Shown: piece after piece, positions 21,997-57,684 of the stretch
Numbering within the stretch: position 1 is the first letter of the stretch
How the letters are laid out: every line of letters starts with the position of its first letter
Assembly: GCF_018350175.1 (NCBI RefSeq)
Contig: NC_058386.1
Coordinates: 122,078,001-122,142,000 of the forward strand
Direction of reading: 5' to 3'
DNA length: 64,000 bases
Source: Felis catus
Lineage: Eukaryota
The notes under the pieces: model-generated
The model's input: only the letters and a program-made list of their open reading frames with translations
Told to the model about the DNA's origin: nothing
Database searches by the model: none
Position numbers and translations under genes: made by a program

Positions 21997-22275
<279 letters not shown>

Positions 22276-23032: not shown

Positions 23033-23365
<333 letters not shown>

Positions 23366-25269: not shown

Positions 25270-25344
25270 CTGAAACGAGATGCGAGATTCATCATTTTAG
25301 TCATTCTGGGAGGGAAGATTTGTGTCTGCTGCCGCCGAGACTGC

Positions 25345-25592: not shown

Positions 25593-25956
25593 ACAGCAGT
25601 CATAATGGTCTGGTTCCACTATGGAGAAAAGTTCCTTTTAAGTTGTCTACAAGGCTCACTATGCCCTGGGACCTAACTAAACTCACTGAATAAAGACACA
25701 TAAAGCCCAGTTGAAGGGATTCACATACCTATTTGACGTTACCTGGCCTCTGAATGTTTAGTCATACCTGCACACTCCATCTAAGGGGGTTGTAGGTTAA
25801 TAGGAAAGCCTAGACTTTCTCATCTCTCCATAATGTCTCTCGAGAAAGAAAGTTGTCCTCGGAAATTAAACCCTTTCAGTAGATCATTCATCTCGGGTCT
25901 ACTAGGAAGGTGCTGAAAAGACAGAAAACATGGGAAACCAAGGACTTTCTACTTAC

Positions 25957-26454
25957 CAGCATTCTCTTATTCCCTGGGGACTGAGTCCCCCGAGGGTTGG
26001 TTGCGCGTATTTTGCTGAAGCCGTACAGGTTCAGCAGGCGGATGAAAGTCTTCAAGCTGTCAGTTTCAAAGATTCTCTCCGCGCCTCTGCGGTGAAGAAC
26101 CTCCCTCTGGAAAAGGTCTTCGTCGATGATCACGGTGTCCCCGGCATCGTTCCAGCGCACGGACGTGAAGGTGTTGTCCTCCAGGATCATCCAAAGCTTT
26201 CTTGGGAAGGAGAGCCCAAGAATACTGTTGTTTTCTCCCACGTTGGCGGCGCCTTGGTTTGGGGCCTGTGGTTGTGGGTTGTCTTGGGGGCCTGGATCTT
26301 GGATCACTGCTTGGTCCCTATTCATCACCAAAATCTCCCCGGAATCCAAATTTGGATCCTGGGATGAACTAGATGGTAATTCTGGTGCTGGCTCTCCATC
26401 ATCAGATGGGGCCAGCTTCCCTTTGGGTATCTCCTTAGCACTCTGACTAGCCAT
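25957..26454 (-). CDS. HSFX: Heat shock transcription factor X-linked (HSFX3/4-like), exon 1 with HSF DNA-binding domain
   Basis: MASQSAKE...LSFPRKLWMILEDNTFTSVRWNDAGDTVIIDEDLFQREVL...FETDSLKTFIRLLNLYGFSKI is an HSF-type DBD. Phase-0 donor CTG|GTAAGT at 25957/25956; 166 codons. Confidence 0.92.
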
Positions 26455-27009
26455 GGAGCTAGTCTAGACCAAGAGCACTTTTGCCATGAGAATGTCTCAC
26501 TGACCTCTCAAGTCGCAAATGCCTTCGGTCAGTATGGGGATGCCCAATATATCCCGTCCACAAAATTCTAGAATCTCGTAGTGAGGCAACCAGCTACCTA
26601 AGTCATCGCCTCTTTATTTGTCATGTGATGTCACAAAGGTGGCTCACAGCTGATCTGGCAAGGCAGCACTGGCCAAGTGTGGGGGAGGGGATGGGCACAG
26701 GGCCCCCAGCTTCTCTCTTTTCCAAAAGTATATGCAAACATCTGGTTTGAGTTCCCAGGAAGGGCTCCTGTCTGCAGCCAGGAAGGAACATTGTTTCATG
26801 GGACCAGGCCCTGGATGGGAAGAGAAACCATGATCCAAGGTCCACTCCCACTCCAGGGATGGGGGAGACAAGTTGCTGGTCTCTCAGATTTGGTCAAGAG
26901 CCAGGCCCTGGTTAGTCCTGGCTTGGGCTGCCCCCAAGACTGCCTGGGTCAGATGGACCCTTGGGGTCGGTACCTCTCAGAAGATGGCAATCCCTAGAGG
27001 ACTTGTCCT

Positions 27010-29097: not shown

Positions 29098-29141
<44 letters not shown>

Positions 29142-32100
29142 CCTGGTTTGGTCTATTCCAACTGTTCCTGCTGGTTAGTTGGTCCTGCTCAGATAGTCCC
29201 CAACAATGACTCCTATTTTCTTGCCCACAGGTAAAGTGGCCCTCAGAGTAGGGTTTCAGTTGGTAGCCCCCTTTTATTCCTGCTGCCTTTGCCCCACACT
29301 TCCTGCTTTGCTGTTTTCCAACTCTTCCTGCTTATTAGATAGTACCGCTCAGGCCAGAAGGAAGAGCCCTGGTTTCTTGCCCCGTAGATCACCTTGTCCA
29401 TAGAGTAGGATCTCAGTTGGTGTCCACTTTTGTTCCTGCCTCCCCACTTCCTGCTTTGGTCTCTTCCAACTGTTCCTGCTATTTAGTTGGTCCTTCACAG
29501 ATAGCCCCAAAGAGAGAGTCCTGTTTCTTCCCCCCCCCCCCCCGCCTAGGTCATGTATTCCCCAGAGTATGGTCTCAGTTGGTAGCCCCCCCTTTTATTC
29601 CTGCCTCCCCACATTCTGCTTTGGTCTCTAACAACTGTTCCTGATGGGTAGTTGGTCCTGCTCAGAAAGGCCCCAACAAGCAGTCCTATTTTCTTGTCCC
29701 AGATCAATCTCTCCTCAGAGTAGGGTTTCAGTTGGAAGTACCCCTTTTGTTCCTACCGCCCCCCCCACACTTCATGCTTTGTTCTTTTCCAAGTGTTCCT
29801 GCTTGTTAGTTAGTCCTGATCAGATAGGCCCCAAGAAAAAGTCCTGTTTCTGTGCCCCCAGGGCTAGTTGTTCTCAGAGTGGATTTTCAGTTGGAAGCCC
29901 CCTTTGCATTCCTGCCCAGCACACACTTCCTGCTTTGGTCTCTTCCAACTGTTCCTCTTGGTTAGTTGGTCCTGCTCATGTAGGCCCAAACAAAGATTCC
30001 TCTTTTTTTTGCCCCCTAGGTCAAGTTGTCCTCAGAGTAGAGTCTCAGATGATAGCCCCCCTTTTATTTCTGCCTTCTCCCACTTTCTGCTTTGGTCTCT
30101 TACAACTATTCCTGATGGTTAGTTGGTCCTACTCAGATGGGCCCCAAGAAAGAGTCCTCTTTTCTTGCCCCTGAGGCCCAGTTTCCCTCAGAGAAGGGTT
30201 TCCTTTGGGTGCCCCAGTTTTATTCCTGTTCCACCCAACACTTCCCTAGGTGGTCTCTTCAACTGCTCAAGCTAGTTAGTTGATCCTTCTAAGATAGGCC
30301 CCAGGAAGGAGCCCTGTTTTTTGCCCCCTAGGTCACACTGTCTTCAGAGAAGCATATCAGTAAGTAGCCCCCTTTTTATTCCTACCCCCTCCGCACACTT
30401 TCTGCTTAGCTGTCTAACACCTGTTCCTACTGGTGAGTTGGTCCTCCTCAGATGGTCCCTACAAAGTGTCCTATTTTCTTGCCCCCAAGTCAAGTTGTCC
30501 TCGGAGTAGGGTTTCAGTTGGTAGGCCCTCTTTTATTCCCTCTCCCACACTTCCCGCTTCCCTCCCTTCCAACTATTCCTGCTGCTTAGTTGGTCCTGCG
30601 CAGATACGCCCAACAGAGAGTCCTAATTACTTGCCCCCTAGGTCAAATTGTCCCCAGAGCAAGGTCTTAGTTGTTGGCGTCCCCTTTTATTCCTGCACCC
30701 CCTACTTCCTGCTTTGGTCTCTTCCAACAGTTCATGCTGCTTACTAGGTCCTGCTCAGGTAGACCCCAATAAAGACTCCTATTTTCTTGCCCCCTGGTCA
30801 ATTTGTCCTCAAAGTAGGGTTTCAGTTGGCAGCCCCACTTTTATTCCTGCTGCCTCACCCACACAATGCCTGCTTTGGTCGCTTCCAACTGTTCCCTCTA
30901 GGTAGTTGGTCCTACTCAGAACCCCCACCCCCCCCAAATTCCTGTTTCCTTGCCCCCAGGGCATGTTTTCCTCAGAGGTGTGTTTCCGTTGGTAGTCCCC
31001 CTTTTATTCCTGCCCCCACACACTTCCCCCTTTGGTCTCTTCCAACTACTTTGGTAACTTGGTCCTGCTCAGATAGGCCCCAACAAAGAGTCCTGTTTTC
31101 TTGGCCCCAGGTTACATGGTCCTCAGAGTAGGGCCTTAGTTGGTAGCCCCACTTTAATGCTGCCACCCCGCTTCAAGCTCTTGTCTTCTCCAACTGTTCC
31201 TGCTGATTAGTTGGGCCTTGTTAGATAGGCTGCAGCAAAGAGTCCGGTTTCCTTGCCCCCTAGGCCAAGTTGTCCTCAGAGTAGGGTCTCAGTTTGTAGG
31301 CCCCCTTTTATTCCTACCTCCTCTGCACACTTTCTGCTTAGCTGTCTAACAACTGTTCCTACTGGTGAGCTGGTCCTCCTCAGATAGTCCCAACAAAGAG
31401 TCCCGTTTTCTTACCCCCATGTCAAGTTGTCTTCAGAGTAGCGTTTCAGTTTGTAGCCCCCCTTTTATTCTCTCTCCCCCACTTCCTGCTTTGGTCTCTT
31501 CCACCTATTCCTGCTGGTTAGTTGGTCTTGCTCAGATAAGGCCCAACAAAGAGTCCTCTTTACTTGCCCCCTAGGTCAAGTTGTCCCCAGAGTAAGGTCT
31601 TAGTTGTTAGCCCCCCCCCCCTTTCTTCCTGGGCCAACAGTTCTTGCTAGGTTGGTCCAACTCAGGTAGGCCGCAACAATCAGTCCTATTTTCATGTCCT
31701 TATGTCATGTTGTCCTCAAAGTAGGGTTTCTGTCGGTAGCCCCCTTTTTGTTCCTGCCAACCCCTTACACACACTTCCTCATTTCTTCTCTCGTAATGGT
31801 TCCTGCTGGTGAGTTGGTCCTGCTCATGTAGGCCCGAAACAAGAGTCCTGTTTTCTTGCCCCCTAGGTCAATTTGTCCTCAGAGTAGGGTCTCAGTTGGT
31901 TGCCTCCCTTTTTCTCCTGCCTCCCCACATCCTGCTTTGGTCTCTCACAACTGCTGCTATTGGTTCATTGGTCCTGCTAAGATAGGCCCCAACAAAGAGT
32001 CCTGTTTTCACGCCCCCAGATCAAGTTATCCTCAGAGCAGGGTCTCAGTTGGTAGGCCCTCTTGTATACCTGCCCTCCCCACTTCCTGGTCTCTTCCAAC

Positions 32101-35100
32101 TGCTCCTGCCGGTTAGTTGTTCCTGGTCAGGTAAGCCCCAACAAAGAGTTCTGTTTTCTTGCTCCAGGTCAAATGGTCCTCAGAGTAGGGTCTCAGTTGG
32201 TCGCCCCACTTTTATTGATGCCTCCCCTCACTTCCAGCTTTGATCTGCTCCAAAGGTTCCTGCTGGTTAGTTGGTCCTGTTCAGATAGACTCCAACAAAG
32301 AGTCTTGTTTTCTTGCCCCCATGTCAGTTTGTCCTCAGAGTAGGGTTTCAACTGGGAGCCCCTTTTTATCCCTGCACCCCCTCACACACTTCCAGCTTTG
32401 GTCTCTTCCAACTGTTCCTGCTGGTTAGTTGGTCCTGCTCAGATGGGCCCAAAAAAAGAGTCCTGTTTTTTTTTCCCACTAGGTCAAGTTGATCTCACAG
32501 TAGGTCCTCAGTTCGTAGACCCCCTTTGATTGCCTCCACCAAACACCTGCCGCATTGGTCTGTTCCAACTGTATCTGCTGGTTAGTTGGTTCTTCTCAGA
32601 TGGGCCGCAACAAAGAGTCCATTTCTCATGACCCCTAGATGAAGTTATCCTCAGAGTATGGTCTCTGTTGGTTGTACCCCTTCTATTCATGCCACCCCCC
32701 TCTGCCTGCTTTGGTATGTTCCAACTGTATCTGCTGGTTAGTTGGTTGTCTTCCGATAGGCCCCAAGAAAATGTCCTATTTTCTTGCCCTCTAGGTCAAG
32801 TTTTCTGCAGAGTAGGGTCTCAGTTTGTAGCTTCCCCATTTATTCCTGCCCCCCCCCCCCGCTTCCTCCTTTGGTTTAATCCAATATTTCCTGCTGGTTG
32901 GTTACTCCTGCTCAGATAGGCCCCCAGAAGAGTCCTGTTTTCTTCTTGCCCCAGGTCAAGTTCTCCTCCGAGTAGGGTTTCAGTTTGTGGCCCCCCCTAT
33001 TATTTTCTCCCCCCATGCTTCCCGCTTTGGTCTCTTCCAGCTGGTCCTGCTGGTTAGTTGGTCCTGCTCAGGTAGACACGCACCGGTAGTCCTGGTTTCT
33101 TGCCACCGGGTCAAATTGTGTTCAGGATAGGGTCTCAGATGGTTGCCTTCCCTTTTATTTGTTTCCCCCACTTCCTGCATTGGTCTCTTCAAAATGTTAA
33201 TGCTCGTTAGTTGCTCCGGCACAGATAGGCCCCAACAAAGAGTCCTTTTTTCTTGCCCCCAGGTAAAGTTCTACTCAGAGAATGGTTTCAGGTGGTTGCC
33301 CCCCTTTTATTCCTGCTGCCCCCCTCACAGTTTCTGCTTTGGTCTCTTCCTACTGGTCCTGCTGATTAGTGTTCCTGCTCAGATAGGCCCCAAAAAGAGT
33401 CCTGTTCTCTTGCCCCCAGTTCAAGTTGCCCTCAGAGTAGTTTCTCAGTTGGTAGCCCCACCTTTATTCCTACCGCCAACAAAGTTCCGCCTCGGTCTCC
33501 TCCACGTGCTCCTGCCGGTTAGTTGGTCCTCTTCAAATAGGCCACAACAATGAGTCCTTTTATCTTTCCCCCAGGTCAAGTTGTCCTCAGAGTAGGGTTC
33601 CAGTTGGTAGCCCCCATTTTATTCCAGCCACCCCTCCCAGCACACACTCCCATCTTTGGTCTCCACCAAATATTCCTGCTGGTTAGTTGGTCCTGCGCAT
33701 TTAGGCCCGAGCAAAGAGTCCTGTTTTCTTGTCCTCTAGATCAAGTGGTCCTCAGAGTAGGATCCAGTTGGTAGCCCCTCCCCCCCACTTTCTGCTTTGG
33801 TCTTTTCCAACTGTTCCATCTGGTGAGTTGGGCTTGCTCAGATAAGCCCCAAAAGAAAGTCCTGTTTTCTTGCCCCCAAGTCATGTTGTCCTCAGAGTTG
33901 GTTTTCCGTTGTTAGCTCCCCTTTTATTCATGGTGGCCACACACTTCCCACTTTGGTCTCTTCCAACTGATCCTGCTGGTTAGTTGGTGCTGCTCACGTA
34001 ATGCCCTGATAACACGTCCTGATTTCTTGCTCCCTAGGTCACGTTGTCATCAGAGTAGGTCTCAGTTGGTAGCCCTGCTTTTATTCCCGCACCCCCCCCC
34101 CCACTTTTCCTGCATTGGTCTCTTCCAAATGTTCCTGCTGCTTAGGTGGTCCTGCTCACATAGGCCCCAACTTAGAGTCCTGATTTCTTGTCCCATAAGT
34201 CAAGTTGTCCTCAGAGTCGGGTCTCAGTTGGTTGCTCCCCTTTTATTCCCACCCCCCACACACTTCCCTATTTGGTCTCTTCTAACTGTTCCTTCTAGTT
34301 ACTTGGTCCTGCTCACCTATGTCCCAACACAGACTCCTGTTTTCTTGCCCCCTAGGTTCAGTTGCCCTCAGAGTAGGGTCTCAGTTGGTAGCCCCCCTCC
34401 TCACTCTTGCCCCCCCCCCGCACTTCCTGCTTTGGTCTCGTCCAATTGTTCCTGCTGATGAGTACATCCTGCTCAGATAGGCCCCAACACAGAGTCCTGG
34501 TTTTTTTGCCCCCAAGTCAAGTTGTCCTCAGAATAGAATTGCACGCAGTAGCCCTGCCTTTATTCCTGCACATCCCAACTTCCTGCTTATGTCTGCTCCA
34601 AATGTCCCTGCTGGTTCCTTGCTCTGCTTAGGCCCCAACGAAAAGTCCTATTTTCTTGCCGCCTAGATGAAGCTGTCCCCAAGGTAGGGTCTCAGTTGGT
34701 AGTCCCCCTTTATACTCGCAGCCTCACCCCACACATTTTGCTTTGGTCTTTTCCAAGTATTCCTGCTTGTTAGTTGGTTCTGCTCAGATAGGCCCCAACA
34801 AAAAGTCCTATATTCTTGCTCTCTGGTCAAGGAGTCCTCAGAGTAGGGTTTCACGGGGTACCCGTCTTTTATTCCTGCCTCCTCACTTCCCACTTTGGTC
34901 TCTTCCAAATGTCCCTGCCGGTTAATTGTTCCTGCTCAGATAGGGCGAACAAAGAGTTATGTTTTCATGCCCCCTAGGTCAAGTTATCCTCAGAGTAGTG
35001 TCTGAGTTTGTACCCTCCTTTTATTCTTGTCCTCCCCCAATTCCCACTTTGATCTCTTCCAACAGTTCCTTCTGGTTAATTGGTCCTGCTCTGATAGGCC

Positions 35101-36756
35101 CCGACAAAGACTGATTTTCTTCCCCCAGGTCAATTTGTCCTCAGAGTTGGTTTTCAGTTTGTAGCCCCACTTTCATTCCTGCCACCCCCCAACACACGCA
35201 CGCACGCGCACACACACACAGACACACACACACACACACACACACACATTCCTGGTTTGGTCTCCTCCAAATGTTCCTGATGAGTTGGTTCTGCTCAGAT
35301 AGGCACCACCAAGAGTCCTGTTTTCCTGCCCCCTATGTCGAATTGTCCTCAGAGTAGTGTCTCACTTGGTAGCACCCCTTTTATTCCTGCCCCTCCCCAC
35401 TTCCCGCTTTGGTCTCTTGCAACTGTTCCTGCTGGTTAGTTGGTCCTACTCAGATAGGCCCCAGCAAAGAGTCCTGTTGACTTGCCCCCAGGTCAAGTTG
35501 TCCTCAGAGTAGGGTCTCAGTTGGTAGGCCCCCTTTATTGCTTCCACTTGCTGCTTTGGTCTCTTCCAACTGTTCCTTTTGGTTGGATGGTCCGGCTCAG
35601 ATAGGCCCCAGGAAAGAGTCCTATTTCGATGCCCCAGGTCAAGGTGTCTTCAAAGTAGGGTTTCAGTTTTTAGTCCCCCTTTGTTCCCTTCCCCACTCTT
35701 CCCGCTGTGGTCTCCTCCAACTGTTCCTGCTTCTTAGTTGGTCCTGCTCAGATAGACACGCACCGGTAGTCCTGGTTTCTTGCCACCGGGTCAAATTGTG
35801 TTCAGGATAGGGTCTCAGATGGTTGCCTTCCCTTTTATTCGTTTCCCCCACTTCCTGCATTGGTCTCTTCAAAATGTTAATGCTCGTTAGTTGCTCCGGC
35901 ACAGATAGGCCCCAACAAAGAGTCCTTTTTTCTTGCCCCCAGGTAAAGTTCTACTCAGAGAATGGTTTCAGGTGGTTGCCCCCCTTTTATTCCTGCTGCC
36001 CCCCTCACAGTTTCTGCTTTGGTCTCTTCCTACTGGTCCTGCTGATTAGGTGTTCCTGCTCAGATAGGCCCCAAAAAGAGTCCTGTTCTCTTGCCCCCAG
36101 TTCAAGTTGCCCTCAGAGTAGTTTCTCAGTTGGTAGCCCCCCGTTTATTCCTACCGCCAACAAAGTTCCGCCTCGGTCTCCTCCACGTGCTCCTGCCGGT
36201 TAGTTGGTCCTCTTCAAATAGGCCACGACAATGAGTCCTTTTATCTTTCCCCCAGGTCAAGTTGTCCTCAGAGTAGGGTTCCAGTTGGTAGCCCCATTTT
36301 ATTCCAGCCACCCCTCCCCAGCACACACTCCCATCTTTGGTCTCCACCAAATATTCCTGCTGGTTAGTTGGTCCTGCGCATTTAGGCCCGAGCAAAGAGT
36401 CCTGTTTTCTTGTCCTCTAGATCAAGTGGTCCTCAGAGTAGGATCCCAGTTGGTAGCCCCTCCCCCCCACTTTCTGCTTTGGTCTTTTCCAACTGTTCCA
36501 TCTGGTGAGTTGGGCCTGCTCAGATAAGCCCCAAAAGAAAGTCCTGTTTTCTTGCCCCCAAGTCACGTTGTCCTCAGAGTTGGTTTTCCGTTGTTAGCTC
36601 CCCTTTTATTCATGGTGGCCACACACTTCCCACTTTGGTCTCTTCCAACTGATCCTGCTGGTTAGTTGGTGCTGCTCACGTAATGCCCTGATAACACGTC
36701 CTGATTTCTTGCCCCTAGGTCACGTTGTCATCAGAGTAGGTCTCAGTTCGTAGCCC
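27010..36756. repeat. ~156-bp tandem satellite, array 1 (~60 monomers)
   Basis: Consensus GGTCAAGTTGTCCTCAGAGTAGGGTCTCAGTTGGTAGCCCCCCTTTTATTCCTGCCCCCCCACACTTCCTGCTTTGGTCTCTTCCAACTGTTCCTGCTGGTTAGTTGGTCCTGCTCAGATAGGCCCCAACAAAGAGTCCTGTTTTCTTGCCCCCTA. Monomer starts at ~27301, 27456, 27613, 27774, 27935, 28091, 28252, 28409, 28564 (spacing 155-161). Confidence 0.95.
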
Positions 36757-37465
36757 GCACATTCCACACCTCCTCCTCAGGGGCACAGTTGTTCTCCAGG
36801 AGGACCACCCCCAAGACCAGCACCAGGAAGCTGGCCGTGGGCATGCCCTGCCTACTGCTTAGCATCCCATCACATATCAGGCCAAGGATGGTGACCAGGA
36901 AGAAGGAGTGGTCTCTGGCGTCCGCTTCCTTCACGTCAACTCCAACGGCCAGCTGCAGATACTCGCAGGCTTGGCGGAAGATCACGGAGACGTGGTCCTG
37001 GTCATCTTGGCTGACCGCCGCCAGCATCTCCGCCTGTGTGGTCGGTCGGCTGCTGAGTGCGATACTTGAGAGCAGGAATGCCACCAGGTCAGCCAGCCTC
37101 ATGCCGAATGCATCTGGGAGCGAGGGCTGGGCTCCTTGTGGGGCCCCTCTGGTGCTGGACCCCTCCTCATCGGGGCTGCTGGGGTCCTCATCGGACTGGC
37201 TCCACGGAGCACCTGCCATGTCAGCGGGGGAGGGGCAGGCATTCGGAAGGCTCAGACTGACTCTGTTGAGGGGCCCAGGCTCCCTCTGTCCTCCTTCTGC
37301 ATCCTCGCCAAGAATGGCCACAGGGCCCAGGCCCTGCCCTCTGCCCACTTGAGGTGTCCCAGCCGCCTCCCCCCGCCCACACACACACACACACACCCCG
37401 TGTCTGTGAGACTCCACTGTGGAAGTCTGGCCCGACTCATCCACCCAAATGCCCATCCTGCCCAT
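36743..37465 (-). pseudogene. Truncated/chimeric MAGE-A paralog, copy 1 (open 240-codon frame; 158 aa from the ATG at 37219)
   Basis: Contains about the first half of the MHD (...QAEMLAAVSQDDQDHVSVIFRQACEYLQL...GMPTASFLVLVLGVVLLENNCAPEEEVW), then runs into satellite. Lacks the normal N-terminus and the C-terminal MHD. Confidence 0.8.
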
Positions 37466-38617
37466 GGCCCTTCACAGAAGGACGCGGGTGCCCGAACTCT
37501 GGCAGGTTCCTTCTGTGTGTCCTAGGGACCTGAGTCCTTCGGTCCGCCCCCCATGTCCCCACCTGGACTCCCTAGCCCGGCCCGTGCCCCTGCCCTTTCT
37601 GACCTGGGATCCTGTCCCTCACCCCAAGGTCCTCGGCTCCCTCAAACCCCCGAGGTACAGTTGAGTGGACACAGCCTGCGGCCGCCCTCTCCAGAAACCC
37701 CGGCCTCAGCGGGGCCTGAGCGCCTCTACCCAGGGTGGGTGGGTGTAGTAGGCCCTACCGCTCTCCCTCAGGTCCAGACACCAGCTCCAGGAAGAGCCTG
37801 GGCCCGTCCCTCTGGGGCCCCGAGTCTACCACCCTTAGCCCCGCTGGGAGAAGGGCTCCGCCTGACCACCCTGCCGGGGTCTCTCGGGCTGCCGGCTGGA
37901 CTGACCTGGATTCCGGGATGGGGGGGCCGGCCGTGCTCCCTCACATGTCGACGTGCACGCCTTGCTGCCCGGCCGGGCCCCTTCTCTCTGCCGGCCCGAA
38001 CCAGGCATCCCAGACTGAGGCTCCCACCTCTGTCACCATCCTTTCCGGGATCCTCACCTTGACTCTGACCGGCTCGGGCCGTGCCCCCGCCCTCTACACA
38101 GCTGAGTCTGTGCGCCTCAGATCCAGGCTCTCACTCCCTGACTTCCTGGAGACGGAGGCAGGGAGCACACCGCAGCCACTGTCCCCACCCCGCTACATTG
38201 TGATCAGCTACCCAGAAGGCATCACACTGACCAGAGACACCAAGCCAGCCTGGCTCAGGATGTCTCCACTGTAGGGCTCCCCCTGGAGCCACACTGCCTC
38301 ACCCTCCTTTGATTTGTTCTGCTCCTCTTAGGGGACCCTTCCCTGCCTTCCCACTGGGACTGTCGCTGCTAGACAGTCACCTAGGGGTGGGACGTGTCCC
38401 GCCTCTCCTAGTGTCCTCACTGCCAACACAGGGCCCTTCCGAGAGTGAGCAGAGCTCAGCGAATGTCCGGCCACAAATGTCCCAGTGAGCTGGGGACCTC
38501 TGCTCAGATCGAGTGTCTCCTCCTTTCTTGGAGACCCAAGCAAAGGCAGGCACACATCTCTATGTCCCTCGTCCAGAATGACAGACGACAAGGGACGAGA
38601 AGCAAGAACGAACATCT

Positions 38618-38623
38618 TTTATT
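38618..38623 (-). terminator. AATAAA polyA signal, MAGE copy 1
   Basis: tttatt ~470 nt downstream of the stop; on the - strand followed by a GT-rich stretch (gatgttcgttcttg). Confidence 0.65.
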
Positions 38624-39094
38624 GCTCCATGCCCTGAAACCATCCGTTTACTGCCAAGGTCTTCACGTTTGCAAGACATCCCTGTCTGTGCCCAGCCCAG
38701 GCACCGCGTTTCCCTTCTGGATCCCGAACGAGGACGGAAGGGTTCCCAGCTCGTTGCACCAAACGGCACAACTCTGACTCTTGAACACCTGTGGCGTGGG
38801 TGCCACTCCCACACTGAGCCCGAAGCTCACGAAACCTTCTATGACAAGGAACAACATCGGAAAACTTCCTCGAGGAAACAAAGATCGATTTCCGAGGCCA
38901 CGTAGACAGAGAACAAGAACCCACCCAAACGCGCGCTTGGCCCCGCTTTCCCCCAAGCCGCCCTGGCCCTCCACTACTCACAACGCCCAGCGCCCGCTCT
39001 GCTCGCACTCGCAGGGGAGAAGTGGCCTGGCTTCGTGCCCCGCAGGAGAAGCTGCTCGACCCCAGGTGGGAACGGGCCCGGCTGCCCCTCGGGC

Positions 39095-40458
39095 TCAGGC
39101 CCGCTCTTCCTCATGGCTCACAGCCTCTTCGGACAGACACGGAGACCCGGGCTGCCTGCTGTTGACCGCGAGGAAGTGCTGCAGCACTTGCACGCCACTG
39201 GTTTCTGCGTGGGCCCTGGGACCCCACAGGAACTCGTAGCGTGCGGGCTCGCTGCCGGGCACCTGCCGGTACTCCAGGTACCCTTCCTGCACCCAGACGT
39301 CGGTCAGCAGCTCCCTGGGCTCCCCATAGAATACGTGCTCCCTGCCGGCATACACCCCCATGACCCCCAGCGCTTCCCACACCGCCTCCTCAGGGGCACG
39401 GTCCTCCTCCAGGAGGATCACCCACAGGACCAGCACCAGGAGGCTGGTCTTGGGCATGCCGTTCCTACCACTCGGCGTCCCATCGCAGCTGAGGCCCAGG
39501 ATGCTGACCAGGACGTAGGAGCCCTCGCGGGGGTCCACTTCCTTCACGTCGACTCCAAAGACCAGCTGCAGATACTCGCAGGCTCGGCGGAAGATCACGG
39601 GGAAGCGGTCCTGGTCATCTTGGCTAACCGCCGCCAGCATCTCCGCCCGTGTGGTCGGCTGCTTGGTGCGATACTTGAGGAGCAGAAGCAGCACCAGGCT
39701 GGCCACCTTCACGCGGAGAGCATCTGGGAGCGAGGCCTGGGCCCCTGCCGGGGCCCCCCAGGTGCTCGACCCCTCCTCATCGGGGCTGCTGGAGCCCTGG
39801 TGGGACTGGCTCCCCGAAGCGCCTGCCATGGCCCTGGGGGAGGGGCAGGAGCTCCGAGGGCTCTGGGGAGGACTCGGGGACCCGGCAGCAGCAGACCCCT
39901 CCTCCAGGGGGACCAGAATGAGGACAGAGCAGGAGGAGGACAGGGAGGAAGAGGAGGAGGAGGAGGAGGAGGGAGATGGGTACCCCCCCTCCTCCTCCTC
40001 TGCTTTCTCCTCCTCCAACTCCACCTCCTCTTCCAACTCCTCCTCTTCCTCCGACTCCACCTCCTCCACCTCCAACTCCACCTCCAACTCCACCTCCAAC
40101 TCCTCCTCTTCCAACTCCTTTTCCTCGGACTCCACCTCCTCCACCTCCACCTCCCCACCTCCACCTCCACCTCCTCCACCTCAACCTCCACCTCCAAATC
40201 CACTTCTTCCACCTCCTCCTCCTCCTCCACCTTCTCCTCCTTCAACTCCACCTCCTCCACCTCCTCCTCCTCCAAATCCACCTCCTCCACCTCCTCCAAC
40301 TCCACCTCCTCCTTCTTCAACTCCACCTCCTCCTTCTTCAACTCCACCTCCTCCACCTCCGTGTCCTCAGGCTCTGGCAGCGGTGCATCCCATGGCAGCG
40401 GGACCTCTCTTGGCTCCTCCTTAAGCTTGCAGAGCTCACTCCTCTGACGCAGGGGCAT
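39095..40458 (-). CDS. MAGE-A-like protein with poly-Glu/Val N-terminal tract, copy 1 (one 1-nt frameshift at ~40154 as assembled)
   Basis: Acceptor ctgtcttcag then ATG MPLRQRSELCKLKEE (MAGE-A-type start). Complete MAGE homology domain (LLLKYRTKQP...FGVDVKEVDP...GMPKTSLL...YGEPRELLT...YLEYRQVPGSEPARYEFLWGPRAHAETS). Span 1364 nt = 3n+2, with the break inside the CTC/CAC repeat. Confidence 0.85.
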
Positions 40459-40479
40459 GATGGTCGCCAAACCCTGAAG

Positions 40480-42800
40480 ACAGAAGAGGGGTGGCTCCTC
40501 AGGGGGAGGCCCAGCCCACCCAGACCCCGAGCTCCCAGGCCTGAGAGCGGGGCCGCGTGGGGGTTGGGGGCCGAGGGGTCCCCTCTGGGGTGGGATGGGC
40601 GAGCCCCCGGCCCCACGCGCGGAGCACGCACCTCGCCTGGACAACCGACTGGCACGCGGCCTCGCCTCCTCTGCTCTGTGACCTCAGGACTCCTGCCTCA
40701 GACCAAGGCCTCAACTGCAGAGCTCGCAGAGCCCCTGGAAGAGGGAGGGATGGAGGGAGGGAGGGGGGGAAGGAGGGGGCGCCTCAGGGTCTCAGGGTGG
40801 GTGCAGACCGCGAGCACCGCCCCGGGCCCCCACCCCCCACTGCGGCCAGGAGATTCTGGCCAGGACTCTGGGCGGCCCCGCCCCGGGAGCCCCCACCCCC
40901 CACCCCCCATCCAGCCTGGGCCTGCCCCTTCCGGGCCTCCCCTGACAGCCAGAGCGGACCCGAGCGGCAGGGCAGGCCTGGGCCCTACGCAGGTGTCCTG
41001 GGCTGGGAGGCAGCGCCTCCTCTCTCCCCTGCACCCCGGCCAGGGCCCTGGATCCTGCCTCGGCTGACCGGGGTCCAGCCCCGCACACCAAGGCCCTCCC
41101 CTCGCCCAGACCCACCGCGGGGGCGGCTTTCCGAGGGCGGACCCCGGGGCTGGGGTCCAAGGGGCCTCCGGCCGTCCTCCCGCAGGGCTCTCCCGGGGAG
41201 CCCCGGGCCCGCTGCCTCCCACCAGAGCCCTCACGGCCCGGCGAGGTCCGGGCCAAGGCGGCTGGCGTCGCACGAGGCGACCAAGTCCGGGGAGGCCCGG
41301 GGCCGATGGCGGGGGGCTCACGTGGCTTCCTTGGGGTCCCTCAGCCCTATCCTCTCGTCCCCATCCGGACTCCCTGGGCGGCCTGGGCCTCGGGCTCTGC
41401 CGCCTGACGCCGGCTCCTCGCGCGCAACCAGCTCTCAGTCGGGCTGGGACCCAGAGCCCGAGTCCGCCCACGCCGCACGCCCTGGTCACAGTCGTCGTGG
41501 TCGCGCCACCCTGCGGCCTCCACCGCCGCCCCCACCGCCGCACTCATTCCCCTCTGGGTCCCGGCTCCCTCGCTCCTCCCTCTGGGCCTCACCTCGAAGC
41601 CCACGAGGCTCTGCGCCCTTCCCGCGCCTGACGGGATTCGAGGCGCGGCCGGAAGACGCCGACGCCCACGCCGACGCCCACGCCGACGCCGAGGCCCCCT
41701 CGCCACGCCCCGCCCCGCCAGTCTCTTGAGACCCGGATGCGGAAGTCCAGACACCCCGCGGGGCCTCATTCCCACTAGGCGCTTCCCTAGGCTGCCGCTA
41801 GGGGTCGCCTTCCGGGCCGGGGCCGGGGCCTGGGTTCTGGGGGGCCAGAGTCCCTCCCTCGGTGTTCCCTCCGTGGCCTCCTGCACCCCGGGGATGGCCT
41901 GTGCGCGTGGCCGCTGACGATGGGAACTCGTGCCCCTCAGACCGGGGTCCGAAGGTCTCTGGGACGCACCGCCCAGGCTCAGTGACGGGGCGCCCGCCAC
42001 CTCCTGCCACCCGATGCAGGGGCTCCCTGGGCCTGCGGCACGGACTGACTTCGTAGCTCTGGGCTGGGGTGGACCTGGTCTCCTGACAGCACCTGGGCCC
42101 TCCTCCCGTCTGCCCACCGGAGCGGCTGCTCCCGACAGACAGCGGGTCCTCGGTTCTCCCCAGCTCACCCATCCGACCCCCACTCCCCCGTCCAGGTGAT
42201 CCGAGACCTGGATGCCCAAGTCCAGCCTCGCCCAGTGTCCCCATCCCTCCCGGGGGCCTGCGCGGACTGACTCTGTTGTGGGGTCCAGGCTCCTTTGCCT
42301 GCAGGTCCCTCTGTTCCTCATTAGGAATCGCCCCGGGACACGGGCCCTGCCCTCTGCCCACCTGAGGTATCCCAGCCACCCCCCGCCCCCTGCGCCTCCT
42401 CCGGTGTCTCTGAGACCCGGCTGCGGAAGTCTGGCCCGACTCTCCTCCGCGAGTCCCCATGCCTCCCAAGGGCCCTTCTCAGAAGGCCTGAGGTCTTGAA
42501 CTTTGGGACGTCCCCTCTGTCCTGGGGACCCGAGTCCCTCAGTCCTCCCTCTGACCCCCACCTGGACACCGTGGCCCCGTCCTGTGTCCCTGCCCTTTCC
42601 TGACCTAGGATCCTGTCCCTCACCCCAAGGTCCTCAGCTTCCTCAGATCCCCGAGGCACAGTTGAGTGGACGGGGCCTGCGGCCACCCTCTACACGTACC
42701 CCGGCACCGAGGCCCAGGCTGATCTCCTCTCCCCGGGGCGGGATGGGCCCTGCGGATCTCCATGAAGTCCCGACACCTGCTGCAGAGGAGCCTGGGCCCG
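40480..42800 (-). promoter_or_regulatory. CpG-rich MAGE 5' region (introns, non-coding exons, promoter) with CGGAAGT ETS sites, copy 1
   Basis: CpG-island composition; gcggaagt at ~41739 and ~42423 within repeated gagacccgg(a/c)tgcggaagtc modules. Confidence 0.65.
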
Positions 42801-42801
42801 T

Positions 42802-45800
42802 CCCCCCTATTATTCCTGCCGCCCCGCCACACACACTTCCGACTTTTCTCTCTTCCAACTGTTCCTGCTGGTTACTTGGTCCTGCTCAGATAGGCCTGAA
42901 CAAAGCCTCCTGTTTTCTTGCTCCTAGGACAAGTTGTCCTCAGAGGAGGGTCTCAGTTGGTAGCCCCCCTTCTATTCCTCCCCCCTCTCTTCTTGCTTTG
43001 GTCTCTTCTAGCTGTTCTTGCTGGTTGGTTGGTTCTGCTCCGACAGGGCCCCATCAAAGTGTTCTATTTTCTTGACCCCATGTCAAGTTGTCCTCAGAGT
43101 ACTGTTGCAGTTGGTAGCGCCCCCCCCATTTATTCCTGCCGCACCCCCACCCCCCACACACACATTTCTTGCTTTGGTCTCTTCCAACTGTAATCACTGG
43201 TGTGTTGGTCATGCTCAGATATGTCCCAGCAAAGAGTCCTGTTGCCTTGTCCCCAACACAAGTTGTCCTCAGAGTAGGGACTCAGTTGGCAGCCCCCCTA
43301 TTACTCCTGCTCCCTCCCACTTACTGGTTTGGTCTCTTCCAACGATTCCTGATGTGTAGTTGGTCCTGCTCAACAGGCCCCAATAAAGAGTCCTGTTTTC
43401 TTGCCCCCTGGGTCAAGTAGTGTTCCAAGTAGGGTCTCAGTTACTAGGCCCCTTTCATTCCTGCTCACCACACTTCCTGCTTTGGTCTCTTCCAACTCTT
43501 CCTGCTGGTTCGATGGTCCTACTCAGATTGGCTCCAAATAAGAGTCTTAATTTACTTGCCCGCTTTGTCCAATTGTTCTCAGAGTATGGTCTCAGCTGGT
43601 AGCCCCCTTTTATTCCTGCCCCCCAATTCCTGCTTTGGCCTCTTCCGACTGTTCCCACTGGTTAGTTGGTCCTACTCACATTGGCCCCCAAAGAGTCCTA
43701 TTATCTTGCCGCCAGGTTAAGTTGTCAGAATTGGGTCCCATTTGGCAGCCCCCCTCTTATCCCCCCCTCCATTCCCGTTTGGTTCTCTTCCAAAGGCTCC
43801 TGCTGCTTATTTGCTCCTGCTCAGATAGGACCGAACAAACAGTCTTGTTTTCTTACCATCTAGATCAAGTTGTCCCCAGAGTAGGGTCTTACTTGGTAGC
43901 CCCCCTTTTTTTCCTGCCCTCCCACTCTGTCTACTTGGGTCTCTTCCAACGGTTCCTGCTTGTTACTTGGTCCTGCTCAGATAGGGCCCAACAAAGAGTC
44001 CTATTTTCTTTCCCCCAGGTCAAGTGGTCATCAGAGTAGGGAGTCGGTTGGTGCCCCCCCTTTTATTCCTATTGCCCACCCCACACTTCCTGCTTCAGTC
44101 TTTTCAACCTGTTCCTGCTGGTTAATTGGTCCTGCTCAGATAGGCCCCAACTACGAGTCCTATTTTTATTCCACTAGGTCAAGTTGACCTCAGAGTAGGA
44201 TTTCAGGTGGTAGCCTCCCCTTTTATTCCTGCCTCCCCCTTCCTGCTTTGGTCTCTTCCAACTGTTCCTATAGGTTAGTTTGTCCTGCTTGTATGTGTCT
44301 CAACAAAGAATCCTATTTTCCTGCCCCTAGGACAAGTTGTCCTCACAGTTGTGTTTAATTTGGCACCCCCCTTTTGTACCTGCTGACCACGCCACCCCCC
44401 CCCACACACACACTTCCTGGTTTGGCCTCTTTCAACTGCTCCTGCTGATTAGTTGGTCTTGTTCAGGTAAGGCCCAACAAAAAGTCCTGTTTCCTTGGCC
44501 CCAGGTCAAGTTGTCCTCAGAGTTGGGTTTAAGTTTGTAGGCCCCCTTTTATTGCCCCCCCTACACTTCTCACTTTGGTCTCTTTCATCTCTTCCTGCTG
44601 GTTAGTTGGCCCTGCTCAGATTGGCTGCACCAGGATTCCTGTTTTCTTTCCCCCCAGGTCAAGTTGTCTCCAGAGTAGGGTCTTAGTTGGTAGCCCCCTT
44701 TTATTCCCGATCCACCCAGTTCCTGCTTTGGTATCTTCCAAGTGTTCCTTCTCAAGTAAGCTGCAAGAAACAGTCCTAATTTCATGCCCCTAGGTCACTT
44801 TGTTCTCAGCATCTGGTTTAATTTGGTAGTCCCCTTTATATTCCTGCCACTCCTCCAAACACACTTCCTGGTTTGGTCTCTTCCAACTGTTCCTGCTGGT
44901 TAGTTGGTCCAGCTCACATAGGCACGAACCAAGAGTCCTCTTTTCTTGCCCCCGAGGTCACGTTGTCCTCAGAGTAGGGTGTGGTTTGGTTGCCTCCCTT
45001 TTTTCCTGCCCCCCCCCACTTCCTGCTTTGGTCCATTCCAACTGCTCTATTGGTTACTTGGTCCTGCTCACATGGGCCACAAAAGGGAGTCCTGTTTTCT
45101 TGCCCCCAGGCCAAGTCGTCCTCAGATTAGGGTCTCAGTTGGTAGCCCCCGTTTATACCTGCCCTGGCAAACTTCTCGCTTTGGTCTCTTCAAGTACTTC
45201 TGGTGGCTAGTTGGTCCTGGTCAGATAGGCCCCAACAAAGAGCCCTGTTTACTTGCCCCAGTTCAAGTTGTCCTCAGAGTAGGGTCTTCGTTGGTAGCCC
45301 CCCTTTTACTCATGCCTCCCACACTTCCTGCTTTGGTGTCTTCCAGCTCTTCCTGCTGATTAGGTAGTACCGCTCAGATAGGCCAGAAGGAAGAACCCTG
45401 GTTTCTTGCCCCCCAGGTCACGTTGTCCATAGAGTAGGATCTCAGTTGGTGTCCACTTTTATTCCTGCCCCCCTATTTCCTGCTTTGATCTCGTCCAACT
45501 GTTCCTGCTCGTTAGTTGGTCCGACTCAGATAGGCCCCAATAAGAGACATGTTTTCTTGCCTCGTGTGTCAAGTTGTCCACAGGGTAGCATCTCAATTTG
45601 TAGCCCCCCATTTGTTCCTGCCCCCCCCACCTTCCTGGTTTGGTCCTTCCAGATTTTATTGCTGGTTGGTTGGTCCTGCTCAGATAGGCCACAACAAAAA
45701 GTCCTATTTTCTTGCCACCAAGTCAACTTGTCCTCAGAGTAGGATTTCAGTTTGTAGTCCCCCTTTTATTCCCTCCCCACCTCACTTCCTGCTTTGGTCT

Positions 45801-48800
45801 CTTCCAACTGTTCCTGCTGGTTAGTTCGTCCTTATCAGATAGGTCCCAACAAAGAGCCCTGTTTTCTTGCCCCCTAGATCAAGTTGCCCTCAGAGTATGG
45901 TCTCAGTTACTAGCCCCCCCTTTTATTCCTGCCCCCCACACTTCCTGCATTAGTCTCTTCCAACTGTTCCTGCTGGGTAGACATCAATCTCAGATAGGAC
46001 CCCCCAAAATGTCCTGTTTTATGGCCCCCAGAGTCAAGCTGTCCTCAGAGTACGGTCTCAGTTGGGAGCACCATTTTTATTGCTGCCCCCCCGACACTTC
46101 CCGCTTTGGACTGTTCCAACCCTTCCTGCTGGTATAGTTGGTACTGCTCAGATAGGCCCCATCAAAGAAACATATTTTCTGCCTCCTAGGTAAAGTTGTT
46201 TCCAGAGTAGGGTCTTAGTTGGTAGCACCCCTTTTATAGCTCCCCCCCGCCCCGCCACCACTTCTCAATTTGGTCTCTTGCAACTGTTCCTTTATCCTGC
46301 TCAGATAGGCCCCAACAAAGAGTCCTATTTTCATGCCCCTAGGTCAAGCTGTCCTCAAAGTAGGGTTTAAATGGTAGCCCCCTTTTTATTCCTGCCACCA
46401 CCACCCCCAACACACAGTTCCTGCTTTGTTCTCTTCCAACTCTTACTACTGGTTAGTCGGTACTGCTCAGATAGGCCCCAAAATAATCGTGTTTCCTTGC
46501 CCCCAGGTCAAGTTGTTCTCAGAGTTGGGTATAAGGTGGTAGCCCCCGCTTTTATTCCTGTACCTCACACACGTCCCTTCTTGGCCTCTTCCAACTTCTC
46601 CTGTTAGTTAGTTGGTCCTGCTCAGATAGGCCCCAACAAAAAGTCCTGTTTTCTTACCCCCAGATTAACTTGCCCTCAGAGTACTGTCTCCATTGGTAGC
46701 CCCCTTTTTATTCCTGTCCCACAACGCTTCTTGCTCTGGTCTCTTCCAACTGTTCCTGCTGGTGAGTGCGTCTTCTCAGCCCCGAAGAAAGAGTCCCGTT
46801 TCTTGCCCCCAAGGTCAAGTTGTCCTCAGAGTAGGGTCTGACTTGGTTGCCCCTGTTTTATGTCTGAACCCCCACACTTCTCGCTTTGGTCTCTTCCAAC
46901 TCTTCCCGCTGATTAGTTGATCCTGCTCAGAGAGGCCCAGACCAAGTTTCCTGTTTTGTTGCCCCCCAGGTCAAGTTGTCCTCAGAGTAGGGTCTCAGTT
47001 GGTTGCCACCATTTTATTTCTTCCCCCCCCCCCAATTCCCACTTTGGCCTCTTCAAACTGTTCTTGTGGGTTAGTTGGTCCTGCTCAGATAGGCCCCCCA
47101 AGAGTCCTGATTTATTGCCCCTAGGTCAAGTTGTCCTCAGAGTAGGATCTGAGTTCGTAGACCCCCTTTGATTCCTGCTCCCCCCCCACACACACTTCCC
47201 ACATCGGTGTGCTCCAACTGTACCCGCTGGTTGGTTGGTCCTGCTCAGATAGGCCCCACCAAGAGTCCTGTTTTCTTGATCCCTAATTCAAATTGTCCCC
47301 AGGGTAGTGTCTCAGTTTGAAGCCCCCCTTTTATTCCCTCCCCCACCACTTCCCGCTTTGATCCCTACCAACTACTCCTGCTGCTTAGTTGGTACTTCTC
47401 AGATAGGCCCCAGTAAAGAGTCCTATTTTCCTGCTCCAGGCCACATTGTCCTCAGAGTAGGGTCTCAGTCCATAGGCCCCTTTGAAGCCAACACCCCTCT
47501 TTGGTCTCTTCCAAATTCTCCTGCTGGTTAGTTGGTCCTGGTCAGATAGGCCCTAACAAAGAGTCCTGTTCTCTTGTTCCAGGTTGTCCTCAGAGGAGGG
47601 TGTAAATTGGTAGCCCCACTTTTATTGCTGTCCCCCCCACATGTCCCACTGTGGTCTGCTCCAACTGTTCCTGCTGGTTTGTCGGTCCTGCTTAGATAGT
47701 CCTCCACAAAGAGTCCTGTTCTTGCCCTCGAGGTCAAGTTTTCCCCAGAGTATGGTCTCAGTTGGTAGCCTCCCGTTTCATTCCTTCCTCCCCACACTTT
47801 CTGCTTGGGTCTCTAACAACCGTTCCTGCTGGTTAGCTGGTCCTGCTTAGATAGGCCCCGCAAAAGAGTCCTGTTTACTTGCCCCCAAGGTCATGTTGTC
47901 CTCAGAGTAGTGTGTCAGTTAGGAGCCCTCCTTTTATTAATGCCCCTCCCAACTGCCACTTCCCACTTTGGTCTCTTCCAAGTGTTCCTGGCGGTGAGTT
48001 GTTCCCTTTTTAGATAGGTCCCAACAAAGAGTCCTGTTTTCTTGTCCCCAGGTCAAGGTGTCCTTAGAGTTGGATTTAAGTTGGTAGTCCCCCTTTTATT
48101 CCTGCACCCCACACACTTCCCTCCTTGGTCTCTTGCAACCTCTTCTGTTGGTTAGTTTGTCCTACTCAGGTAGGGCCCAACAAAGTGTCCTATTTTGTTG
48201 CCCCCTAGAAAATGTTGTCCCCAGAGTAGGGTCTCATTTGTAGCGTCCTTTTCATTCCTGCCCCCCTGCAATTCCTATCTCTTCCAACTGTTCCTGCTGG
48301 TTAGTTGGTCTTGCTCAGATAGGCCCAAAGAATAAGTCATGTTTCCTTGCCCCCAGGTAAATTGTCCTCAGAGTTGGGTTTAAGTTCGTAGCCCACCTTG
48401 TTTCCTGCACCCCACACGCTTCCCTCCTTGGTCTCGTCCAACCGCTCCTGTTGGGAAGTTTGTCCTGCTCATATAGGGCCCAACAAAGAGTCCTATTTTC
48501 TCTCCCCTAGGTCATGTTGTCCCCAGAGTTGGTTCTCATTTGTAGCCTCCCTTTTTATTCCTGCTCCTCCCATTCCCGCTTTGTTCTCTTCCAACACTTC
48601 CTGCTGTTTAGTTGGTCCTGCTCAGATAGGCCCCAAGAATAAGTCATGTTTTCTTGCCCCAAAGTAAGTTGTCCTCAGAGTTGGGTTTAAGATGGTAGCA
48701 CCCCTTTTATTCCTGCACCACACACAATTCCCTCCTTGGTTTCTTCCAAAATTCTCCTTGGGGTTACTTGGTCCTGCTCAGATACGCCCAAAGAAAGAGT

Positions 48801-51800
48801 CTTGTTTTCTTGCCCCCTAGGTCAGGTTGTCCCCAGAGTAGGGTCTTAGTTTGTCGCCCCTCCCTTTATTCCGCCCCCCCGCCAACCCCCACACACTTCC
48901 TGCTTTGGTCTCTTCCAACTGTTCCGGGTGGATAGTTTGTCCTGCTTAGATAGGCCCCAACAAAAAGTGCTGTTTTCCTGCCCTCAAATCAAGTTGTCCT
49001 CAGAGTATGATTTCAGTTGGTAGTCCCCCTTTTACTACTGCCACCCCCCGACACACACTTCCTGATTTGGCGTCTTTCAACTGTTCCTACTCGTTAGATG
49101 TTCCTTCTCAGGCCCCAACAATACTCCTGTTTTCTTGCCCCGAGTTCAAGTTGTCCTCAGAGTTGAGTTTCAGTTTGTATCCCCCCCCCCCTTATTCCTG
49201 TTTCCCACATACTTGCCTCTTTGGTCTCTTTCCACTGTTCCTGCTGGTTAGTTGGTCTTGCTCAGAGAGGCCCCACCAAGATTCCTGTTTTGTTTTGTTT
49301 TGTTTCGCTCCCTAGGTCAAGTTGTCCCCAGGGTAGGGTCTCAGATGGTAGCCTCCCCTTTTATTCCTGCCCGCCCACACTTTCTGGTTTGGTCTCTTCC
49401 AACTGTTCCTGCTGGTCACTTGTTCTACCTAGATAGGCCTCAACAAAAATCCTATTTTCCTGCGGCCTAGATCAAGTTGTCGCCAGAGGAGGGTCCTAGT
49501 TGGTAGCCTCCTCTTTGATTTCTGCCCCCCACCCACACACACACTTTCTGCTTGGGTCTCTTCCAAATGTTCCTGCTTCTTAGTTGGACTTGCTCAGATA
49601 GGCCCCAACGAAAAATCCTGTTTTTTTGCGCCCAGGACAAGTTGTCCTCTGAGTTGGGGCTCAGTTGGTAGTACCCATTTTATCCTGCCCCCCACATACT
49701 TTCCGCTTTGGTCTCTTCCATCTGTTCCTGCTGGTTACTTGGTCCTGCTTATATAGCGCTCAACAAAGAGTCCTGTTTTCTTGCCTCCAGGTCAAGTTGT
49801 CCTCAGACTAGGGTTTCAGTTGGTACCCCCTTTTATTCCTGCTTCTCCCCCCCCACACACACACACAGACACATAGTTCCTGCTTCCGACTCTTCCTACT
49901 GTTCCTCCTGGTTAGTTGGTCCTGCTCAGATAGGCCCCAACAAAGAGTCATTTTCTTGCCACCAGGTCAAATTGTCCAGAGTCGGGTTTCAACTGTTAGC
50001 CCCACTTTTTTCCCTGACCCCAATGCTCTTCCAGGTTTGGTCTCTTCCAACTGTTACTGCGAGTTAGTTGGTCCTGCTCACATAGGTCCCACCAAGAGTA
50101 TTGTTTGTTTTATTGCTCCCTAGGTCAAGTTGTCCCCAGAGTAGGGTCTCAGTTGTTAGCCCCCCGTTATTCCTGCCCCCACCCAATTCCCACTTTGGCC
50201 TCTTCCAACAGTTCCTGCTGCTTAGTTGGTCCTGCTCAGATAGGCCCCAAAAAAGAGTCCTATTTTCTTGTCCCCTAAGTCAAGTTGCCCTCAGAGTAGG
50301 GTCTCAGATGATAGCCCCCCTTTTATTTCTGCCTCCTCCCACTTTCTGCTTTGGTCTCTTACAACTATTCCTGATGGTTAGTTGGTCCTACTCAGATGGG
50401 CCCCAAGAAAGAGTCCTCTTTTCTTGCCCCCGAGGCCCAGTTTCCCTCAGAGTAGGGTTTCCTTTGGATGCCCGAGTTTTATTCCTGTTCCACCCAACAC
50501 TTCCCTAGGTGGTCTCTTCAACTACTCAGGCTGGTTAGTTGATCCTGCTAAGATAGGCCCCAGGAAAGAGCCCTGTTTTCTTGCCCCCTAAGTCACACTG
50601 TCTTCAGAGAAGCATATCAGTAGGTAGCCCCCTTTTTATTCCTACCCCGTCCGCACACTTTCTGCTTAGCTGTCTAACACCTGTTCCTACTGGTGAGTTG
50701 GTCCTCCTCAGATGGTCCCTACAAAGTGTCCTATTTTCTTGCCCCCAAGTCAAGTTGTCCTCGGAGTAGGGTTTCAGTTGGTAGGCCCTCTTTTATTCCC
50801 TCTCCCACACTTCCCGCTTCCCTCCCTTCCAACTATTCCTGCTGCTTAGTTGGTCCTGCGCAGATACGCCCAACAGAGAGTCCTAGTTACTTGCCCCCTA
50901 GGTCAAATTGTCCCCAGAGTAAGGTCTTAGTTGTTGGCGTCCCCTTTTATTCCTGCACCCCCTACTTCCTGCTTTGGTCTCTTCCAACAGTTCCTGCTGC
51001 TTACTAGGTCCTGCTCAGGTAGACCCCAATAAAGACTCCTATTTTCTTGCCCCCTGGTCAATTTGTCCTCAAAGTAGGGTTTCAGTTGGCAGCCCCACTT
51101 TTATACCTGCTGCCTCACCCACACAATGCCTGCTTTGGTCGCTTCCAACTGTTCCCTCTAGGTAGTTGGTCCTACTCAGAACCCCCACCCCCCCCAAATT
51201 CCTGTTTCCTTGCCCCCAGGGCATGTTTTCCTCAGAGGTGTGTTTCCGTTGGTAGTCCCCCTTTTATTCCTGCCCCCACACACTTCCCCCTTTGGTCTCT
51301 TCCAACTACTTTGGTAACTTGGTCCTGCTCAGATAGGCCCCAACAAAGAGTCCTGTTTTCTTGGCCCCAGGTTACATGGTCCTCAGAGTAGGGCCTTAGT
51401 TGGTAGCCCCACTTTAATGCTGCCACCCCGCTTCAAGCTCTTGTCTTCTCCAACTGTTCCTGCTGATTAGTTGGGCCTTGTTAGATAGGCTGCAGCAAAG
51501 AGTCCGGTTTCCTTGCCCCCTAGGCCAAGTTGTCCTCAGAGTAGGGTCTCAGTTTGTAGGCCCCCTTTTATTCCTACCTCCTCTGCACACTTTCTGCTTA
51601 GCTGTCTAACAACTGTTCCTACTGGTGAGCTGGTCCTCCTCAGATAGTCCCAACAAAGAGTCCCGTTTTCTCACCCCCATGTCAAGTTGTCTTCAGAGTA
51701 GCGTTTCAGTTTGTAGCCCCCCTTTTATTCTCTCTCCCCCACTTCCTGCTTTGGTCTCTTCCACCTATTCCTGCTGGTTAGTTGGTCTTGCTCAGATAGG

Positions 51801-57653: not shown

Positions 57654-57684
<31 letters not shown>

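Follow-up and report, generated by a model that had tools for sequence, protein, structure and literature searches.

An X-linked MAGEA array with a satellite spacer in the cat, and a left gene-satellite junction common to Felidae

Multi-copy type I MAGEA genes are described at the human EOLA/HSFX/TMEM185A site, in the MAGEA9/HSFX and GAGE arrays (PMC13616518 and PMC8327908), and MAGEA clusters have been shaped by lineage-specific local duplication (PMC3484994). We describe a similar locus in the cat, within 64,000 nucleotides of Felis catus DNA (NC_058386.1, positions 122,078,001 to 122,142,000), hereafter the window. We read this locus as an ampliconic MAGEA array on the X chromosome in which satellite DNA forms the spacer; the left junction between satellite and MAGEA DNA is common to Felidae. 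An ampliconic segment is defined as a duplication of at least 10 kb with at least 99% identity (PMC8327908). The cat locus resembles the human X ampliconic arrays in its multi-copy type I MAGEA gene at this site; its units may approach the same size and likeness (10 kb or more at about 99%) and appear to be homogenised by conversion. Unlike the human arrays, the cat locus has a spacer made of 10-14 kb of a 155-bp satellite, and each unit carries a truncated paralog fused to that satellite.

Two other tandem systems of the cat genome can be compared. The felid DXZ4 macrosatellite is also an X-linked tandem unit of several kb, whose copy number varies in cats. However, it is about 4.6 kb long, non-coding, CTCF-bearing and located at PLS3, whereas the MAGEA unit is about 20.3 kb long, protein-coding and located at HSFX (DXZ4 as given in PMC8662614). 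FA-SAT is likewise a tandem satellite of the cat genome, but with a 483-bp monomer, 64% GC and ~90% similarity between repeats (PMC5714208), against ~155 bp, ~50% GC and 77% pairwise here. The present satellite is not FA-SAT, since neither monomer length nor GC matches. We did not find the felid satellite or amplicon described in the published literature, subscription papers and repeat libraries being outside the scope of the search; Bredemeyer et al. 2023, cited in PMC11216403, may cover the locus. Term searches of PMC8006817, PMC11216403 and PMC8662614 found no occurrence of MAGE.

The window contains three arrays of the ~155-bp satellite (consensus 154 bp), with two GC-rich 6-kb blocks between them. 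Each repeat unit is composed of satellite plus one 6-kb MAGEA block, here called the cassette, and the offset of the tandem duplication is 20.25-20.28 kb (~20.26 kb). Two units and the start of a third spacer are present. The arrays, the junctions of the first cassette and the second cassette are as follows.

27010..36756, plus strand: array 1, 62 monomers from 27069, about 87% to consensus
36754..36757, plus strand: junction J1, satellite C-run (phase 123) joined to DNA from the middle of the MAGE homology domain (MHD)
42802..42807, plus strand: junction J2, where the satellite C-run (phases 121-125) takes over from MAGE upstream DNA, with 3-nt CCC microhomology
42802..57038, plus strand: array 2, 92 monomer pieces, from 50350 onward a copy of 30091-36756
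57039..63052, minus strand: second cassette copy, 0.4% substitutions from the first
63053..64000, plus strand: array 3, which repeats the beginning of array 2 in collapsed form, with two in-register jumps (monomer 65 to 74 to 106)

Array 1 ends in GTAG-CCC at 36754-36756, with MAGE coding DNA from 36757. Array 2 restarts with a run of six Cs (42802-42807), followed by TATTATTCC. In a wrap-around alignment to the 154-bp consensus, both edges fall inside one C-run, phases 121-125, with the left edge at phase 123. The preliminary description of this DNA had placed both junctions in monomer register, which the alignment bears out; the cut in the middle of the MHD on the left and in the 5' flank of gene 1 on the right is present too. 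It had also stated that a normal monomer is restored when the cassette is removed, and this holds in part. The computed join of 36756 to 42803 gives a monomer of 164 bp with an ordinary score of 163, above 21% of the natural ones (mean 178, standard deviation 28). Its C-run, however, has a length of 8, or of 9 when none of the six Cs on the right is dropped. Among 68 natural monomers the length ranges over 1-8, with a mode of 4-6 and 8 Cs in 2 of the 68, so that about 3 Cs are doubled.

The chance of a register within 4 nt is 0.058 under uniform breaks, and 0.12-0.21 when breaks are drawn from the positions at which indels of the array end. Indels in the arrays concentrate in the C-rich parts of the monomer, and if both breaks preferred one of four C-runs, the chance would be about 0.25. 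The register therefore exceeds chance only moderately, with a single event to judge from.

Joins with short overlaps are known from microhomology-mediated end joining (MMEJ), fork stalling and template switching (FoSTeS) and microhomology-mediated break-induced replication (MMBIR). The cat junctions resemble these in the short CCC overlap at J2 and in being non-homologous; they differ in the imperfect overlap at J1, and one event and two look alike in the window. The proposed C-run microhomology stands at the right junction, where 3 nt are shared with positions 37808-37810 of the paralogous flank. On the left, an additional base separates the C-run of the paralog from the join, so that microhomology there is 0-3 nt and unproven. 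At this point hyena orthologs have the residues W-K-[VEA]-L, against W-N-V-R in felids. J2 is known from this window alone.

The same register had been reported for a second pair of junctions, and it is indeed present, with CCC ending at 57038 and a run of five Cs from 63053. This pair lies inside the tandem duplication, and the two cassettes differ by 24 substitutions in 5,995 columns (99.6% identical). We therefore count one event, not two, and reject the second pair as an independent replicate. Between units, the 8.7 kb of 34114-42802 differ by 0.08-0.4%, the segment 30091-33025 by 1.1% and a 1-kb tract by 18%; the whole unit has 95% identity. The recent repeat unit starts at monomer 19 (30091), the counterpart of monomer 111 (50350). 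ENA contigs of 20,249 and 20,281 bp encode cat-like and Panthera-like versions of the cassette proteins. Their sizes match the unit length and they may be collapsed units, hinting that unit length is conserved between Felis and Panthera.

The cassette carries two MAGEA genes, each with an upstream unit.

36743..37219, minus strand: gene 2, a truncated MAGEA paralog whose last four codons and stop are read from the satellite; ends in WNVRATN
37253..37808, minus strand: gene-2 upstream unit, paralogous to 42265-42802
39095..40458, minus strand: gene 1, MAGEA9-like, with a long Glu-rich N-terminus and one Glu-repeat frameshift in this copy
42265..42801, minus strand: gene-1 upstream unit, cut at the right junction

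The protein end created by J1 is found across the cat family. Species-labelled records from Neofelis nebulosa, Panthera onca and Lynx rufus share the WNVRATN end, which cat-like ENA/Logan proteins have too. All 20 gene-2-type proteins examined end at the junction (19 plus the one of the window; one with a substitution). Eight accessions of the truncated gene come from Lynx rufus, a count that isoforms may inflate. The Neofelis models of gene 1 and truncated gene 2 have consecutive accessions (XP_058568312.1 and XP_058568313.1), consistent with adjacency there. Hyenas, on the other hand, retain intact proteins of both paralog types. In a tree of 31 rows, in which the truncated rows occupy under half of the columns, gene 1 falls with proteins of Crocuta/Suricata (99/96), and the truncated gene 2 falls with intact ones of Hyaena/Crocuta (92/89, below the star threshold of the tool). 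The MAGE genes thus form an older pair, as first suggested. The J1 end across felids, together with the intact hyena paralogs, indicates that J1 formed on the felid stem. By this comparison of sequences, J1 is dated after the hyena split and before the split of Pantherinae and Felinae. These splits lie at roughly 30 and 11 million years.

Gene 2 has further lesions. Its upstream unit is joined straight to the middle of the open reading frame (ORF) at ~37253, which we infer to be an internal deletion, J3. This deletion is common to the P. onca and Lynx models, and frameshifted versions of gene 2 exist. The cat-like gene-2 proteins differ over a short stretch at 37060-37080; there the Lynx and P. 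onca models are flagged as low quality and other records are frameshifted. This pattern suggests a second, compensating frameshift that would have reopened the frame in the cat lineage.

The satellite appears to be older than the junctions. Jukes-Cantor distances are 0.27 between monomers, 0.22 between the flanks of the MAGE paralogs and 0.19 between their coding parts. This order points to a satellite that predates J1, in agreement with the preliminary description, although paralog conversion and CpG decay could bias the distances. Monomers on the two sides of the gene block are also indistinguishable. When 48 monomers right of the cassette were compared with 42 left of the next one, 255 of 1000 permutations reached the observed difference, and no majority-base difference was present between left and right. 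The satellite has thus not grown separately on each side, as had been argued before. Neither the cassette nor the upstream unique DNA shows homology to the monomer.

The locus starts with an EOLA-like gene and HSFX, followed by the 155-bp satellite and then by the ~20.3-kb units.

22018..23362, plus strand: EOLA/CXorf40-like gene, two coding stretches (ORF from 22018; ORF 23033-23365)
24679..26463, minus strand: HSFX-like gene, two exons, HSF DNA-binding domain (PF00447, E 4.6e-17)

The first of these genes we take to belong to the EOLA/CXorf40 family, and a Pfam scan of its second coding stretch gave no match. IDS motifs were looked for in 1-27000 and not found, and the locus may be either of the two EOLA/HSFX copies. 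An identical protein is present on a 127.8-Mb NCBI contig, which we counted, with the EOLA-like and HSFX neighbours, toward an X-linked syntenic position. In human, 32 kb separate MAGEA9B from HSFX3; in pig, CXorf40A and HSFX4 each have MAGEA-like genes at a distance of about 4 kb (PMC8327908 Table S4). Human and pig synteny together indicate that MAGEA genes are native to the EOLA/HSFX site in two outgroups. The cat column of the same table, from a human-cat-pig-mouse X alignment, has no MAGEA entry at the locus in the part seen; the cat locus was probably under-assembled in that alignment.

The arrays record frequent exchange between monomers, and two features matter for the history of the cassette.

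28790..30090, plus strand: monomers 11, 12, 14 and 18, whose diverged paralogs (about 84-91%) in array 2 are monomers 70, 71, 79 and 104/110, in collinear order
33073..34067, plus strand: ~1-kb tract whose monomers are 98-100% identical to those directly preceding the left junction; unit 2 lacks it at the corresponding position

Pairs 11-70, 14-79 and 18-104/110 reach log-odds (LOD) values of 11.0, 30.4 and 10.1, against a null maximum of 8.2, while pair 12-71 is a top match that is not significant alone. These paralogs are already present in array 1, left of the first cassette, so the apparently right-hand block is not specific to the right side. The ~1-kb tract stops about 10 bp before the point equivalent to the junction and is either a recent conversion or a misassembly. 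It was considered as an empty site and rejected, since the DNA that follows matches the native monomer of unit 2 and not 42802 onward. In-register crossover between monomers is common, with collapse visible in arrays 3 and 1.

As for the origin of the unit, we lean, without great assurance, towards events in place, namely a deletion and a microhomology tandem duplication through two separate breaks in the satellite C-run, followed by satellite-mediated unequal crossover. A native MAGEA pair would have stood beside a satellite array next to HSFX, with gene 2 decaying by internal deletion and frameshift. A deletion would then have joined the interior of gene 2 to a C-run of the satellite, giving J1. 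A tandem duplication would have joined the CCC upstream of gene 1 into a C-run further up the array, giving J2 and the first repeat unit; these two steps could have come in either order. Finally, and this step is partly shown, in-register unequal crossover and conversion would alter spacer length and copy number and keep the units alike. We favour this history because of the synteny, the lack of a donor, the other lesions of gene 2 and the fact that simple events are the more frequent ones: deletions and tandem duplications outnumber multi-kb templated insertions. Capture of the cassette from a donor, as originally proposed, is unproven: MAGEA is native at this site in human and pig, the microhomology at the left junction is imperfect, and 0 of the 20 gene-2-type proteins continue past the junction. 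The donor MAGE tandem that it would need was not found among felid proteins, a protein-level result with which later loss is compatible; a full-length felid gene 2 was absent from the results of three protein searches, in which hyena versions ranked high.

Several points weigh against a deletion plus duplication in place. The register would have to be a coincidence, at the uniform and empirical chances given above (6-25% overall, helped by the C-run bias), and phases 119-128 account for only 6-17% of the indel ends. The ~3 doubled Cs resemble a scar left by a single template switch or insertion. Monomers 0-10 and 63-69 have no significant paralogy, although it would be expected had the first unit escaped deletion. 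An insertion followed by contraction would likewise account for the paralogy between array 1 and the right-hand block, and two further significant matches, 10-113 and 2-151, are not collinear. Finally, 7 of the 22 members of the main truncated-protein cluster lie outside the matches listed, the absence of a donor is a finding on proteins, and J2 comes from one window.

A less probable history, which we nevertheless take seriously, is a single local templated insertion. A break or stalled fork at the C-run would have taken 6 kb of the neighbouring native MAGEA pair as template before coming back to that C-run; a crossover between satellites would later have duplicated the unit, and the donor would have been lost, for example by recombination between cassette and donor. 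In its support, the two junctions fall within a single run of 5 nt in a monomer of 154 nt, about 3 Cs are doubled, and the register would favour this history by roughly 2.5-10 fold. The satellite appears to be of earlier date than the junction and does not differ from one side to the other, hyenas have intact forms of both paralogs, and crossover between diverged monomers is frequent here. It has to be read from one event only, however, with no donor among felid proteins, an imperfect microhomology at the left junction and an extra step of loss. There is no empty site in the window either, as the 33073-34067 copy rejoins native monomer sequence. More tentatively still, one template switch on the felid stem may have put the MAGEA block into an ancient X satellite and created a family-wide, gene-bearing macrosatellite of ~20.3 kb, with unit length conserved between Felis and Panthera. 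A circular intermediate was rejected, as the cassette ends are not adjacent in the paralog. Local similarity across the junction was discarded as a test of adjacency because neighbouring monomers share no more derived variants than distant ones. It is improbable that the MAGEA pair had satellite on either side as early as the feliform ancestor, as an older amplicon, with two deletions trimming the block inward. The satellite is as old as the paralog pair or older, and Hyaena has several MAGEA genes on one scaffold; yet this would require the same coincidence of register plus an unexplained earlier step. We give very little credit to independent growth of the satellite on each side of the genes, or to junctions that are assembly artefacts. 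The different Glu-repeat frameshifts of the gene-1 copies may be base-level assembly errors, and the 33073-34067 tract could be misassembled. However, left and right monomers are indistinguishable, the monomer lacks homology to its surroundings, and the J1 protein end in three other felid species and many independent contigs contradicts an artefact at J1.

Gene 1 is 94-97% identical to felid MAGEA9-like models, with PF01454 on the matches, and its nearest relatives are MAGEA8/9/10-like. It clusters with MAGEA9-like models of Felis catus, Acinonyx, Leopardus, Lynx, Neofelis and Panthera, and Felis catus models are in the identical cluster. Both copies in the window are frameshifted, at different places of the Glu repeat (39988-40360 and 60280-60643), and intact versions of 435-487 aminoacids are present in other records. 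The Glu-rich N-terminal repeat is long in felid gene 1 and much shorter in the hyena and meerkat proteins. An AATAAA signal lies on the minus strand at 38618-38623. Before gene 1 there are two tandem upstream units (41696-42075 and 42379-42749), 61% alike, with a CpG observed/expected ratio (o/e) of 0.77 at 41001-42000; these are likely alternative promoter or first-exon units. C-rich degenerate tandem repeats occupy 17600-19100, by a CpG island (about 19000-20000) upstream of the EOLA-like gene.

In the arrays at 27010-36756 and 42802-57038 the two strands differ strongly in composition, with a GC skew of about -0.23 and an AT skew of about -0.30, and CpG is depleted, with o/e of 0.07-0.36 in array 1. 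(CA)n expansions recur at one monomer phase (29099, 35192, 55477). Rfam gave 0 matches across 26500-36800, which covers array 1. Among 24 rows of sequencing runs listed by a word search, 14 DNA or untyped rows contained 0.94-0.95 of the words and 6 RNA rows 0.22-0.91; these rows are left out of the evidence here. Two possible sources of the satellite were rejected: MAGE, as the cassette gave no match to the monomer profile, and the DNA upstream of HSFX, where 74 of 500 shuffles and 22 of 108 control windows scored as high as the left edge.

None of the mechanisms is out of the ordinary, and any roles of the truncated copy and of the satellite are putative. The locus provides a datable origin, on the felid stem, for an X-linked amplicon of putative germline genes, with a junction peptide that is a simple family-wide marker. 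Its satellite acts, as partly shown here, as a crossover substrate for gene copy number. If the single template switch were true, it would be the satellite that changes the copy number of a presumed testis gene, and there would be a second felid X macrosatellite, beside DXZ4, to consider in hybrid male sterility.

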